Shown here piece after piece: positions 2,837 through 5,501 of a stretch of DNA of 5,501 nt. The DNA is taken from the IMG/VR virus record IMGVR_UViG_2778261064_000016; one strand, written 5' to 3'. A program made the translations under genes and the position numbers. The notes below the pieces were generated by a model that saw nothing but the letters and a program-made list of their open reading frames with translations, did no database searches and was not told where the DNA came from. Positions within the stretch are counted from its first letter, which is position 1. Each line of letters starts with the position of its first letter. This DNA comes from a virus. Lineage: Duplodnaviria > Heunggongvirae > Uroviricota > Caudoviricetes.

Positions 2837-3124
2837 TTAATCGTTACCAGGATATTGCTGACGAGCATGTATCACGCTAACAATTTCAATGCTTGAAGTA
2901 GCTACCCTGTATAGGATTATGTAGTTAGGGTGAGTCACGATTTCTCTCAATCCAGAAACCCGTTCGCTTGGCGGATATAGATACGGATGCTCAGATAGGG
3001 GTAGCACCGATGTTTCAATGCGTATTTTTAGTCTGCGCGCTGCCGGAGGGTTTTTCTTAGCAATGTAAGTTATAATCTGACTTAAATCATCGCGAGCAGA
3101 CGGTAACCATAAAACGGGCAGCAT
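2837..3124 (-). CDS. parE: ParE/RelE-superfamily toxin (type II TA toxin), 95 aa
   Basis: ATG at 3124..3122 overlaps the antitoxin stop (TAATG), with SD GGGAG 6 nt upstream inside the antitoxin gene. Sequence MLPVLWLPSARDDLSQIITYIAKKNPPAARRL...GLREIVTHPNYIILYRV...IEIVSVIHARQQYP shows the ParE/RelE hallmark pattern. The track ORF 2837..3247 is a 5' over-extension. Symbol is family-level; this may be parE2 of the O157 paaR2-paaA2-parE2 system. Confidence 0.85.
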   Translation of the reverse strand: MLPVLWLPSARDDLSQIITYIAKKNPPAARRLKIRIETSVLPLSEHPYLYPPSERVSGLREIVTHPNYIILYRVATSSIEIVSVIHARQQYPGND

Positions 3125-3315
3125 TACACGCTCCCGTTTTCCATGGCAATTTGATTGATGATTTTTTCCATTTTTGCCATTACTTCGTCGTGCGGTATTG
3201 CTGGTCGTGGATCTGCAAGGCTTGCTGCAACCTTGGCGCGCAACCATTCGTTGTAACTGTTTTCTTGCTCGATAGTTTCAAATTCTGAAACTATCGGCGA
3301 AAGAACTGTGCTCAT
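3124..3315 (-). CDS. cognate antitoxin, 63 aa (PaaA2/ParD-like by position)
   Basis: ATG at 3315..3313 with SD AGAGG 6 nt upstream; stop TAA at 3126..3124 overlapping the toxin ATG (translational coupling). Small acidic protein MSTVLSPIVSEFETIEQENSYNEWLRAKVAASLADPRPAIPHDEVMAKMEKIINQIAMENGSV. The 63-aa length matches what I recall for PaaA2, but the sequence is not verified. Confidence 0.75.
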   Translation of the reverse strand: MSTVLSPIVSEFETIEQENSYNEWLRAKVAASLADPRPAIPHDEVMAKMEKIINQIAMENGSV

Positions 3316-3343: not shown

Positions 3344-3742
3344 TTATGCTCGACGTCCTTTTTGGGCGGCAAGCCATCTTGCAACTGTGCGATCCATTGA
3401 TTCTTTTTTGTCTTTCATGTCTTTAAGCATTTGTTCTTGCTCCTCTTCTGGGAACGCCCCAAATGTTTGAAGCAAATCTCTCTGGCGCGGTCCTATTTTC
3501 ATTGTGTCAGGTACTACAACCTGTTCATCCTCGCTCGGAGGAAGCATGAACCAAAAAATAGGCCGAGCAGTTATTTGTGAAAGTCGATCTAAATTGTCAG
3601 GATTTGGACTAACTAAGCCAGCAGCCCATCGCTGCACTGTTTGTTGCGACACACCAACTAATTTCCCAAGCTCCGCCTGACTCCAGCCTGTTTCAGACAA
3701 GAGTTTCTTTATTCTGTATGCAGTAATCTCGAGTGTTTTCAT
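3344..3742 (-). CDS. cI-like prophage repressor, HTH (XRE-type), 132 aa, RacR/PaaR2-like; no peptidase S24 domain
   Basis: ATG at 3742..3740, stop at 3346..3344. HTH motif in GWSQAELGKLVGVSQQTVQRWAAG. No SD, but a -10-like TAGAAT lies 7 nt upstream of the ATG, suggesting a leaderless mRNA. Divergent from the cro-like gene; 28 bp upstream of the antitoxin gene on the same strand. Too short for a LexA-type autocleavage domain. Confidence 0.85.
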   Translation of the reverse strand: MKTLEITAYRIKKLLSETGWSQAELGKLVGVSQQTVQRWAAGLVSPNPDNLDRLSQITARPIFWFMLPPSEDEQVVVPDTMKIGPRQRDLLQTFGAFPEEEQEQMLKDMKDKKESMDRTVARWLAAQKGRRA

Positions 3743-3848: not shown

Positions 3849-4121
3849 ATGAATGATCATGTTAAGAAAAGGGTCGCGGGAAAATTTTCACAACGAGAAC
3901 TGGCTATGTTAATGAGCACGAAACAACAAAGCGTATCTCGTTGGTTCAACTCTAAGTTCCCTGCATCAAGGGTGCTTCACTTGTGTCAATTGATGCAGTG
4001 GGAGGTTACTCCACACGAACTCCGACCAGACATTTACCCTAACCCAACCGACGGTTTACCCGTTGGGTGTAAGGCTAACACATCAAAGGCACCGGAGTTG
4101 ATTCATGAAAATCAAGCATGA
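3849..4121 (+). CDS. ydaS: Cro-like HTH DNA-binding protein (YdaS-like), 90 aa
   Basis: ATG at 3849 with strong SD GGAGG (3836-3840, 8-nt spacer); stop TGA at 4119-4121. HTH in FSQRELAMLMSTKQQSVSRWF. Divergent from the repressor. The track ORF start at 3771 is an unsupported extension. Symbol assigned by synteny with Rac racR-ydaS-ydaT. Confidence 0.8.
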   Translation: MNDHVKKRVAGKFSQRELAMLMSTKQQSVSRWFNSKFPASRVLHLCQLMQWEVTPHELRPDIYPNPTDGLPVGCKANTSKAPELIHENQA

Positions 4122-4530
4122 GCACATCCGCATGGCGATGAATGCCTGGGCGCGTCCGGACGGTGAAAAAGTTCCGGCAGCTGAAATAACCCGGGCTTAT
4201 TTTGAGCTGGGTATGACGTTCCCGGAGCTATATGACGACAGGCATCCGGAAGCGCTGGCTCGTAATACCCAGAAAATTTTCCGCTGGCTGGATAAAGACA
4301 CCCCTGATGCGGTTAAAAAAATTCAGGCGTTGTTACCAGCTATCGAAAAAGCAATGCCGCCTCTGCTGGTGGCCAGAATGCGCAGCCACAGTTCAGCTTA
4401 TTTTCGGGAGCTGGTGGAGATGCGGGAGCGACTGGTGAGAGACGCTGATGATTTTGTCGCAGTGGCAATCGCCGGTTTCAATCAGATGAACCGTGGTGGC
4501 CCGGCAGGAAATGCTGTGGCAGTACATTGA
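4105..4530 (+). CDS. ydaT: YdaT-like protein (CII-like regulator/toxic protein of Rac-type prophages), 141 aa
   Basis: ATG at 4105 with SD GGAG (4094-4097, 7-nt spacer); overlaps the upstream stop by 17 bp (coupled). N-terminus MKIKHEHI matches my recollection of E. coli YdaT. Stop TGA at 4528-4530. Confidence 0.8.
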   Translation: MKIKHEHIRMAMNAWARPDGEKVPAAEITRAYFELGMTFPELYDDRHPEALARNTQKIFRWLDKDTPDAVKKIQALLPAIEKAMPPLLVARMRSHSSAYFRELVEMRERLVRDADDFVAVAIAGFNQMNRGGPAGNAVAVH

Positions 4531-4601
4531 CTGACAATAGCCATATCGAATCGCTTCCGGCAATTCGTGAGTAAAAAGATTCGGTATCAGAAGAGGTGAG
4601 A

Positions 4602-5501
4602 ATGGCTAACGCCTGGCTCAGATTATGGCATGACATGCCAAATGATCCTAAGTGGCGAACAATTTCCAGGGTGTCAGGACAGCCAATCGCAACAGTGATG
4701 GCAGTGTATATCCACCTTCTGGTGAGCGCGTCACGAAATGTCACGACATGTCACGGCGTGTCACTACGTGGCCACATTGATGTCACGACGGAAGATTTAG
4801 CAAGTGCGCTTGATGTGACGGAAGAAGTAATTGATTCAATTTTACAGGCAATGCAGGGGCGGGTACTTGATGGAGATTTAATCACTGGATGGGAAAAACG
4901 CCAGGTACTGAAAGAGGACAACGGTAACGTTTCTCAAACCGCGAAATCCCCGGCAGAGCGCAAGAGAGCGCAGCGCGAGAGGGAAAAATTACGAAAACAG
5001 AATGAGGGGGGCCACGACGAGTCACGCATATGTCACGACATGTCACGACGAGTCACGACAGATAAAGATACAGATAAAGAATTAAACCCCACACATAACG
5101 CGCGCGAGAGTGCTCCGACCAGTGAGGCGAATGGTGTGCCGTTGCAGACAGCGGAACCTGATTACCAGGAAGGCCTGAGCGAACCCATCGGGAAATTTCC
5201 GATGACCGATGGCTGGCATCCGTCGCCGGATTTTCGACGACGGGCTGCGTTGTGGGGGATGGCTCTGCCAGAGCCGGAATTTACACCTGCTGAACTTGCC
5301 GCCTTTCGGGACTACTGGGCAGCGGAGGGGAAAGTTTTCTCGCAGGTTCAGTGGGAGCAGAAATTCGCCCGTCACGTAAATCACGTCAGGGCACAGGTTA
5401 AACCAGTCAGCAAGGGGGTAAACCATGCAGCAGCACCAGGTGGCACCGCATCACGGGCAGTTCAGGAAATTCGGGCAGCACGTGAGCAGTGGGAACGTGA
5501 A
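4602..5501 (+). CDS. phage replication initiation protein (O-like, YdaU/DUF1376-type N-terminus, DnaT-like C-terminal region), partial: continues beyond the right edge
   Basis: ATG at 4602 with SD AAGAGGTGA (5-nt spacer). Hand translation gives 300 codons with no stop to 5501. N-terminus MANAWLRLWHDMPNDPKWRTISRVSGQPIATVMAVYIHLLV. Iteron clusters inside the gene, as in lambda O. Follows ydaS/ydaT as in Rac. Confidence 0.8.
   Translation, partial: MANAWLRLWHDMPNDPKWRTISRVSGQPIATVMAVYIHLLVSASRNVTTCHGVSLRGHIDVTTEDLASALDVTEEVIDSILQAMQGRVLDGDLITGWEKRQVLKEDNGNVSQTAKSPAERKRAQREREKLRKQNEGGHDESRICHDMSRRVTTDKDTDKELNPTHNARESAPTSEANGVPLQTAEPDYQEGLSEPIGKFPMTDGWHPSPDFRRRAALWGMALPEPEFTPAELAAFRDYWAAEGKVFSQVQWEQKFARHVNHVRAQVKPVSKGVNHAAAPGGTASRAVQEIRAAREQWERE
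4729..4790 (+). repeat. iteron cluster 1: five copies of TGTCACGAC-like 10-bp repeats (four contiguous at exact 10-bp spacing)
   Basis: cgTCACGAAa / TGTCACGACa / TGTCACGGCg / TGTCACTACg at 4729-4768, then TGTCACGACg at 4781-4790. A DnaA-box-like TATCCAC sits at 4708-4714. Confidence 0.7.
5011..5060 (+). repeat. iteron cluster 2: five copies of (T/A)GTCACGAC at exact 10-bp spacing
   Basis: gCCACGACGa / GTCACGCATa / TGTCACGACa / TGTCACGACg / aGTCACGACa read directly. Two further degenerate copies (GTCACGtaaaTCACGtc) at 5371-5387. Confidence 0.7.
5061..5090 (+). other. AT-rich tract with short direct repeat (GATAAAGA x2) immediately after iteron cluster 2; candidate DNA-unwinding element of the origin
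   Basis: gataaagatacagataaagaattaaacccc is about 70 percent A+T, directly flanking the iterons, mirroring the lambda ori layout (iterons then AT-rich region inside the initiator gene). Confidence 0.5.

Follow-up and report, generated by a model that had tools for sequence, protein, structure and literature searches.

Where does replication of a lambdoid prophage begin, and could its starting point lie within the coding sequence of its own replication initiator? The question is raised by a stretch of 5,501 nucleotides from the IMG/VR virus record IMGVR_UViG_2778261064_000016 (hereafter the window, meaning the whole stretch), whose gene content is that of a lambdoid, Rac-like prophage segment, and in which an initiator gene contains two arrays of short direct repeats (iterons) and an AT-rich tract. 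An earlier note on this DNA had proposed a lambda-ori-like origin at this place, made of iterons and an AT-rich unwinding tract inside the initiator gene, and comparative evidence now strongly supports it. Here it is proposed that the iteron arrays and the tract very likely constitute the vegetative origin of the prophage, embedded in its own initiator gene. Comparison of sequences across variants and homologues demonstrates selection on the repeats and tract at the DNA level, their co-variation and co-segregation with the N-terminal domain of the initiator, and a layout common to the family. From this anatomy and from characterised systems, we infer that the N-domain binds the repeats, that the tract melts and that a helicase is loaded, as well as any looping between the arrays.

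The gene order of the locus is a cI-like repressor gene on the - strand, a Cro/YdaS-like gene, a YdaT-like gene and a long + strand open reading frame (ORF) from 4602, the initiator gene, in which the following features are located.

4602 to 5501, + strand: first 300 codons of the initiator gene (from the ORF list), the 3' end of which lies beyond the window.
4602 to 5009, + strand: N-terminal winged-helix domain (amino acids 1-136), presumed to bind the iterons.
4730 to 4789, + strand: iteron array 1, with GTCACGAC-like copies at 4730, 4740, 4750, 4760, 4770 (degenerate) and 4782.
4790 to 5010, + strand: inter-array spacer of ~220 bp, encoding the helix-turn-helix, wing and basic helix of the initiator.
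5011 to 5059, + strand: iteron array 2, with copies at 5011 (degenerate), 5021, 5032, 5042 and 5052.
5057 to 5090, + strand: purine-rich AT tract (GATAAAGATACAGATAAAGAATTAAA), presumed DNA unwinding element (DUE) and mosaic junction.
5196 to 5396, + strand: DnaT-like domain (amino acids 199-265; PF17948, 4e-18).

With at most one mismatch, GTCACGAC has 11 matches in the window, all of them on the + strand, against 3.4 +/- 2.0 expected. The exact hexamer GTCACG occurs 11 times on the + strand and is absent from the - strand (1.2 expected per strand), and the arrays hold 8 of these 11 occurrences. The earlier note had described about ten copies in two clusters, both inside the initiator ORF, and this description agrees with the 11 same-strand matches and with the position of both arrays (4730-4789 and 5011-5059) within the + ORF starting at 4602. 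Its exact 10-bp period stands in part: most steps are of 10 bp, but steps of 11 and 12 nt also occur, since the spacings in array 2 are 10, 11, 10 and 10 and the array 1 copy at 4782 follows the 4770 copy by 12 nt and is out of phase. The array starts are separated by 281 bp, and array 2 directly abuts the AT-rich tract. The phased-copy score of the window is 10, with a maximum of 7 among 226 control windows (77 codon-shuffled, 75 downstream and 74 upstream). The repeats are translated as SR, VT and CH dipeptides, all three frames being used; a period of 10 nt allows no peptide repeat.

A DnaA-box-like TATCCAC had also been pointed out ahead of the first array. The string does occur, at 4709, but differs from TTWTNCACA by more than a single mismatch, and a DnaA box near array 1 was rejected because matches to TTWTNCACA in the window are at chance level (13 versus 12.6 expected). 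Additionally, no IHF consensus site was found in the window, and no sigma-70-like promoter inside the initiator ORF.

The AT-rich tract after the second cluster, with its direct repeat, is present as the earlier note had it: ACAGATAAAGA occurs twice, at 5058 and 5070, and the 30-mer 5057-5086 is 77% AT. This 30-mer has the lowest stability among all 5472 30-mers of the window, with a dG of -31.2 against a window mean of -40.2. Directly 3' of the tract, CCCCACACATAACGCGCGCGAGAGTG (5087-5112) combines an alternating GCGCGCG run with a weak minus-strand hairpin that has a T-run. This hairpin (5109-5087) is the only terminator-like match near the origin and its score is at chance, as are terminator-like hits in the window generally.

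To gauge constraint on the repeats, IMG/VR and genomes supplied 49 unique close variants. These hardly differ in the GTCACG cores, synonymous sites included, but do differ in the spacers of 2-3 nt; of third-codon positions, 8% are polymorphic in the cores versus 52% elsewhere in the same gene (Fisher p=4e-5). The copy number of array 2 ranges from 3 to 9 and array 1 has a 21-nt copy-number indel block. Such a pattern, slippage with the core under selection, is the footprint expected of a protein-binding DNA repeat.

For the family-wide survey, homologues were collected by tblastn of the N-terminal 136 amino acids against phages and by a degenerate-pattern scan, with one genome per species, and they range from 30 to 96% identity in Gamma-, Beta- and Alphaproteobacteria and beyond. 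Absence or lack of conservation of the repeats in homologous initiators had been set beforehand as an outcome that would refute the origin; the test was run, and the repeats are present and conserved. Of 77 homologous genes, 79% reached six or more phased copies within their first 620 nt in a de novo scan that accepted every 7-mer having neighbours 10, 11 or 20-22 nt away, compared with 1% of codon-shuffled sequences, 3% of downstream windows and 0% of upstream windows. The phased copies fall at two shared gene positions (~nt 115-180 and ~nt 350-450). Both arrays were detected in 56 of 66 homologues, array 1 being undetected in ~10 of the 66, and the start-to-start distance between arrays has a median of 260 bp (interquartile range 250-279). 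The repeat cores were distributed as follows.

GTCACG: enterobacterial, Pseudomonas, Aeromonas and Bordetella homologues.
CGAACG(C): relatives at ~42-54% identity.
GCAACG(C): Ralstonia, Burkholderia and sphingomonad relatives.
GTAACG, GGTGACG and CCAAACG: other homologues.

The core thus shifts with protein divergence (GTCACG, CGAACG, GCAACG, GTAACG, GTGACG), and the two arrays in one gene use the same motif: the array-2 motif is found at least three times in the array-1 region of 55% of loci, versus 6% for non-cognate motifs. Both arrays and the protein change in concert, as initiator-iteron pairing predicts, and the repeats have the two properties expected of an iteron origin, co-evolution with the initiator and constraint at the DNA level. 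Among distant homologues the partner gene varies, being P-like, DnaC-like, DnaB-like or with none adjacent, and the arrays stay with the N-domain; immunity genes also differ between homologues. The repeats therefore track the N-domain rather than the neighbouring genes. In the complete 46-kb genome of phage Tritos, no second GTCACG cluster was found, the sole cluster being the one inside the initiator gene. As a variation, arrays with a period of 5 nt in place of 10 nt, (GTCAC)n or (ACGTC)n-like, were seen in some homologues from Massilia and other Oxalobacteraceae (nt ~387-430 of the gene), Pantoea and Erwinia, and array 1 was undetected in several of these homologues.

The tract is likewise a property of the family. 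In nearly every homologue a run of purine-rich hexamers, (GATAAA)n, (GATACA)n or (GAGRAG)n, comes after array 2, with an AT content of 0.64 versus 0.43 for the gene and a purine content of 0.77 versus 0.56. The median stability rank of these tracts is in the lowest 0.05% of the 30-mers of the ~3.4-kb locus. The encoded peptide is a charged, disordered linker, and the codons that write it differ from those used elsewhere in the gene: GAT for Asp in 89% versus 43%, AAA for Lys in 75% versus 43%, ACA over ACC for Thr in 90% versus 32%, and AGR for Arg in 90% versus 17%. This skew among synonymous codons persists where the GC content of the host ORF is at least 0.58; a DNA property is therefore selected, beyond the amino acids.

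The window from 4500 to 5501, the part searched, is 99.8% identical to Escherichia coli RM9088, where the full initiator has 344 amino acids (6103-7137 of the retrieved stretch) and is annotated as a DnaT-like single-stranded DNA-binding domain protein. It matches the PHROG family phrog_1408, 'replication initiation protein' (2e-113), and 'phage replisome organizer' is the NCBI name for its relatives. The earlier note had taken it for an O-like initiator, a label that does not hold, as Phage_rep_O gives no match even at E<=10 and only the DnaT domain and a weak helix-turn-helix are recognised; the protein has a replisome-organizer-like winged-helix N-domain joined to a DnaT-like domain. For the N-domain, TIGR01714 aligns end to end at an E value of 4.6e-4 and 20.4 bits, below its cutoff of 49.8, and PHROG 'replisome organizer' families match at 1.6e-5 and 1.1e-3, while PF09681 (Phage_rep_org_N) matches the Tritos homologue weakly (E 0.12). 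No Pfam match to RepA_N (PF06970) was found at the N-terminus, and a PDB sequence search with the family profile gave nothing meaningful. The AlphaFold model is helical with a winged-helix core (mean pLDDT 68.6, core near 90), and the closest folds to the N-domain are the N-terminal domain of DnaD and a RepA_N initiator, the structural matches being moderate. In the same model, array 1 encodes a low-confidence loop (amino acids 43-63) and array 2 a disordered linker (137-153), which together with the tract covers the disordered residues 137-163. The gene downstream of the initiator encodes a 153-amino-acid protein matching Phage_lambda_P (PF06992, 4e-16), the match being confined to the C-terminal two thirds of that model.

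Records filed as phage genomes (Evi, Tritos and the vB_Eco series) contain a module of the same type, and the two halves of the module have different relatives. Evi and Tritos have the N-half to ~5080 in common with the window, including both arrays, and a different C-half. Rac-SA53 has in common the C-half from ~5060 and a 99%-identical P-like loader, and its initiator has a DUF1376 N-domain and no GTCACG repeats; the PPompW phages also have the C-half in common with the window initiator. By this mosaic pattern, the N-domain and the iterons form one module, and the C-half and the loader another. The homology breakpoints of the two halves are at 5060-5080, inside the tract; since the breakpoints of both overlap there, the tract may double as a recombination joint for module exchange. 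The CCCCACACATAACGCGCGCGAGAGTG segment is kept in the C-module of Rac-SA53.

A mechanism can be proposed from these elements. The N-terminal winged helix would bind head-to-tail on the short direct repeats, whose GTCACG cores recur about once per helical turn. Filaments of the protein would thereby form along a single face of the DNA, at array 2 and, in most members, also at array 1 ~260 bp upstream. The nucleoprotein complex would destabilise the adjoining purine-rich AT tract (5057-5090) until it melts, and the host DnaB helicase would be recruited jointly by the DnaT-like C-terminal half and the lambda P-like protein encoded just downstream. Array 2 and the tract probably make up the core origin, with array 1 probably in an auxiliary or regulatory role, because ~10 of 66 homologues are without detectable array 1. 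Looping or handcuffing between the arrays is possible.

A more elaborate version of the origin seems improbable, though it merits description. In it, the origin would be bipartite, with array 1 looping to the linker array over ~260 bp and so licensing or throttling firing, and with the tract serving as a sequence-periodic single-strand platform; the purine hexamers, (GATAAA)n or (GAGRAG)n, would then be read by the initiator or the loader and would not be a generic AT-rich DUE. DnaA-trios are loosely comparable to such a platform.

It is also unlikely, somewhat more so, that the repeats are initiator-binding sites mainly for control (autorepression of the operon, titration of the initiator, or handcuffing of the two arrays or of sister copies) and that the strands are opened elsewhere. 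Plasmid iteron arrays commonly combine initiation and control roles, array 1 would seem dispensable for the core function given the homologues in which it is missing, and two arrays at this distance could pair. However, array 2 always abuts the least stable tract of the locus, which is the canonical layout proven in SPP1 (PMC5737612), and the whole Tritos genome has no other repeat cluster. A control role of array 1 is, moreover, compatible with the in-gene origin and does not replace it.

Very little room is left for the idea that repeats and tract are kept for another factor, such as CII- or Cro-like regulators, a host protein, or module-shuffling recombination at the linker. The position of the mosaic breakpoint exactly within the tract would suit it, as would the GATAAAGATACAGAT tract found also in DUF1376-type initiators with unrelated N-domains. 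Nevertheless, the repeat sequence follows the N-domain across hosts with differing immunity genes, and a recombination junction would account for the tract but not for phased, co-varying arrays. Furthermore, tracts that do not conserve the sequence, such as (GAGRAG)n, still are rich in AT and purines, which argues for a physical property and not for sequence identity serving recombination. Hardly credible is slippage-prone, low-complexity coding DNA tolerated in loops without any function at the DNA level: both arrays do encode low-confidence loop or linker segments and are polymorphic in copy number, but the 10-nt period running through all three frames, the frozen synonymous sites of the cores, the same two positions occupied by different but internally consistent motifs in distant homologues, and the loss of the signal in codon-shuffled controls already effectively refute it through the codon-shuffle, variant and cognate-motif results.

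Several observations weigh against the origin proposed here. Two copies in the window are degenerate, 4770-4777 being GGCCACAT (GGCCAC) and 5011-5018 being GCCACGAC (GCCACG), whereas the majority forms among the 49 variants are GGTCACAT and TGTCACGAC; several further lineages also show decay of array 2's first copy (GGGGCGCGAC, GGGGCATGAC). In the near-identical RM9088 prophage, IS1 and pseudogenes lie downstream, and because of this the copy of the origin considered here may be weakened or idle. The assignment of the N-domain to the replisome organizer family is sub-threshold, below curated cutoffs, and hhalign of the N-domain against SPP1 G38P and Tuc2009 Rep found no sequence similarity. 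The conserved inter-array distance may do no more than mirror the constant size of the domain that the spacer encodes, and the conservation of the tract could be partly owed to a recombination-junction or charged-linker role. Finally, no publication describing the element or its repeat and tract strings was found.

How does the proposed origin compare with known ones? As in the window, lambda ori has iterons and an AT-rich tract inside the initiator gene, at the junction of its origin-binding N-half and its loader-binding C-half, with a P-like gene (PF06992) immediately downstream. The layout of a lambda-type origin, iterons and an AT-rich tract in the initiator gene followed by a P-type loader, is present here. 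In both systems, the specificity module (N-half and ori) and the loader module are exchanged independently. However, the window initiator is not an O homologue, and the repeats are of another kind: lambda ori has four 19-bp iterons with internal dyad symmetry in a single cluster, while the window has 10-bp non-palindromic direct repeats in two arrays.

In the Bacillus phage SPP1, gene 38 contains oriL, in which G38P-bound repeats adjoin an AT-rich DUE, a 356-bp fragment being enough in vitro (PMC5737612, PMC6316719). As in the window, the origin is within the organizer gene, with head-to-tail repeats of ~11 nt (AGAAACGACAG and similar) ending the part that codes for the N-domain, followed, as read from the sequence, by the AT-rich DUE at the interdomain linker. 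Direct repeats with a presumed AT-rich DUE at an interdomain linker, the layout of replisome organizers, are thus present in the window. Some N-domain homologues of the window protein even bear the G38P C-terminal domain (PF09524). The differences are that the N-domains are without detectable sequence similarity, that SPP1 has a second origin, oriR, elsewhere, whereas Tritos (the one complete genome scanned) is without a second cluster, and that the partners of G38P are G39P and G40P, whereas the window locus has a lambda P-like loader. A direct-repeat scan of SPP1 gene 38 showed no counterpart of array 1. The SPP1 oriL repeats (AGAAACGACAG; 537-627 of the gene 38 stretch) and the TCACGAC repeats of the window have an ACGAC core in common, which may be a coincidence or a recognition mode shared by distantly related winged helices.

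Similarly, the Rep protein of plasmid pSK41 uses a DnaD-like winged helix to bind Rep boxes central to its own gene, the linker segment of the protein that the ori encodes can be dispensed with, and in natural hybrids the N-terminal domain has been exchanged along with the ori (PMC5703833). In RepA_N plasmid initiators of Gram-positive bacteria, to which pSK41 Rep belongs, the C-terminal domain is host- or partner-specific. pSK41 differs in being a plasmid with one array, whereas the window derives from a phage, has two arrays and a DnaT-like C-domain, and gives no RepA_N match. The rep gene of the Lactococcus phage Tuc2009, which is annotated as 'contains origin of replication', has, like the window, direct repeats (GCAACCAAATG) followed by a purine hexamer tract (GGATAGGATAGGAGAGGTTAGG...) in mid-gene; its N-domain is without similarity, its C-domain is PF06926, and one main array was read. 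Among phages of Gram-negative hosts, a putative in-gene origin has been annotated in the Francisella phage KIRK (PMC7924643). A survey of the replication region of Stx phages does not discuss iterons. SPP1 oriL, Tuc2009 rep and the pSK41 Rep boxes are precedents for this design with experimental proof. With respect to these systems, the conserved two-array layout is the only unusual feature, and the rest follows known design.

The origin oriJ of the Rac prophage has been reported as active (PMC3945230), and a comparison with it had been called for. The ydaU gene of K-12 Rac occupies the same slot after ydaS- and ydaT-like genes and has an GATAAAGATACAGATAAAGA-type tract in the initiator gene, as in the window. 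However, YdaU of K-12 has a DUF1376 N-domain, no GTCACG repeats and repeats of its own (ATGTTCAAACA), and its downstream partner is the ATP-binding YdaV; it is a different initiator with different repeats. Identity with K-12 Rac oriJ/ydaU was accordingly ruled out, as N-domain and repeats differ. No sequence-level map of oriJ was found, and we infer the likeness of layout to oriJ itself.

The DUF1376 initiators deserve mention in their own right. In the ydaU genes of K-12 and Rac-SA53, ATGTTCAAACA is found as three direct copies and one inverted copy just upstream of the GATAAAGATACAGATAAAGA tract (4505-4630 of the K-12 stretch; 2941-3020 of the Rac-SA53 stretch). At the level of sequence, this combination of repeats and tract is a plausible candidate for Rac oriJ. 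It suggests that a second family of initiators also obeys the rule of binding sites joined to a purine hexamer tract in the linker; literature linking DUF1376 with an origin was looked for and none was found.

The concept behind the proposed origin is not new, being well documented in SPP1, lactococcal phages, RepA_N plasmids and lambda; the initiator family that carries it is unstudied but widespread. Among 5426 complete E. coli genomes, 2581 match part and 658 match most of a 1-kb query (4500-5501 of the window), partial matches being to either half of the mosaic, and the module also occurs in phages from Pseudomonas, Aeromonas, Ralstonia and a wide range of further Proteobacteria. The analysis thus offers a testable origin and a code of initiator specificity for a replication module of a large share of E. 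coli genomes. In these genes a function of the DNA would dictate protein sequence: the length of the initiator loop and linker follows the copy number of the iterons, and the linker's codons are chosen to suit a tract that has to melt easily. The layout rule could be used for annotating prophage origins and for predicting replicon incompatibility.

In two deposited records, an initiator gene of this kind is missing from the annotation. In the Pseudomonas phage phi1, an initiator ORF of 310 amino acids with both arrays (1968-2900 of the stretch) is unannotated, and in the Pseudomonas aeruginosa 'plasmid' CP137943 (50.9 kb, circular) an initiator ORF with both arrays (~4001-4900 of the sampled stretch) is absent from the gene table. 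The latter record is probably a D3-like phage genome, its sampled 8-kb region having an S24 repressor, CII, NinB and NinG. A search of plasmids for replicons relying on the initiator alone turned up nothing but E. coli records of large size and a pair of circular Pseudomonas phage genomes of 51 kb; as natural initiator-only replicons, phage genomes filed as plasmids are weak evidence at best.

The remainder of the window contains other prophage genes, and an Rfam scan of the window gave zero families at threshold, DicF included.

513 to 713, - strand: DUF1482 gene.
719 to 898, - strand: DicB homologue.
1444 to 1953, + strand: 170-amino-acid ORF with CxxC...CxxC motifs and no Pfam match.
2413 to 2562, - strand: DUF1391 gene.

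The cI-like repressor gene (3344-3742, - strand) is located directly upstream of genes for a PaaA2-type antitoxin (3127-3315, - strand; PF21217, 2e-22) and a ParE toxin (2840-3124, - strand; PF05016, 2e-17). This repressor/PaaA2/ParE order presumably resembles that of paaR2-paaA2-parE2 in a cryptic prophage of O157:H7, and the immunity repressor of the prophage may double as a regulator of the toxin-antitoxin pair.

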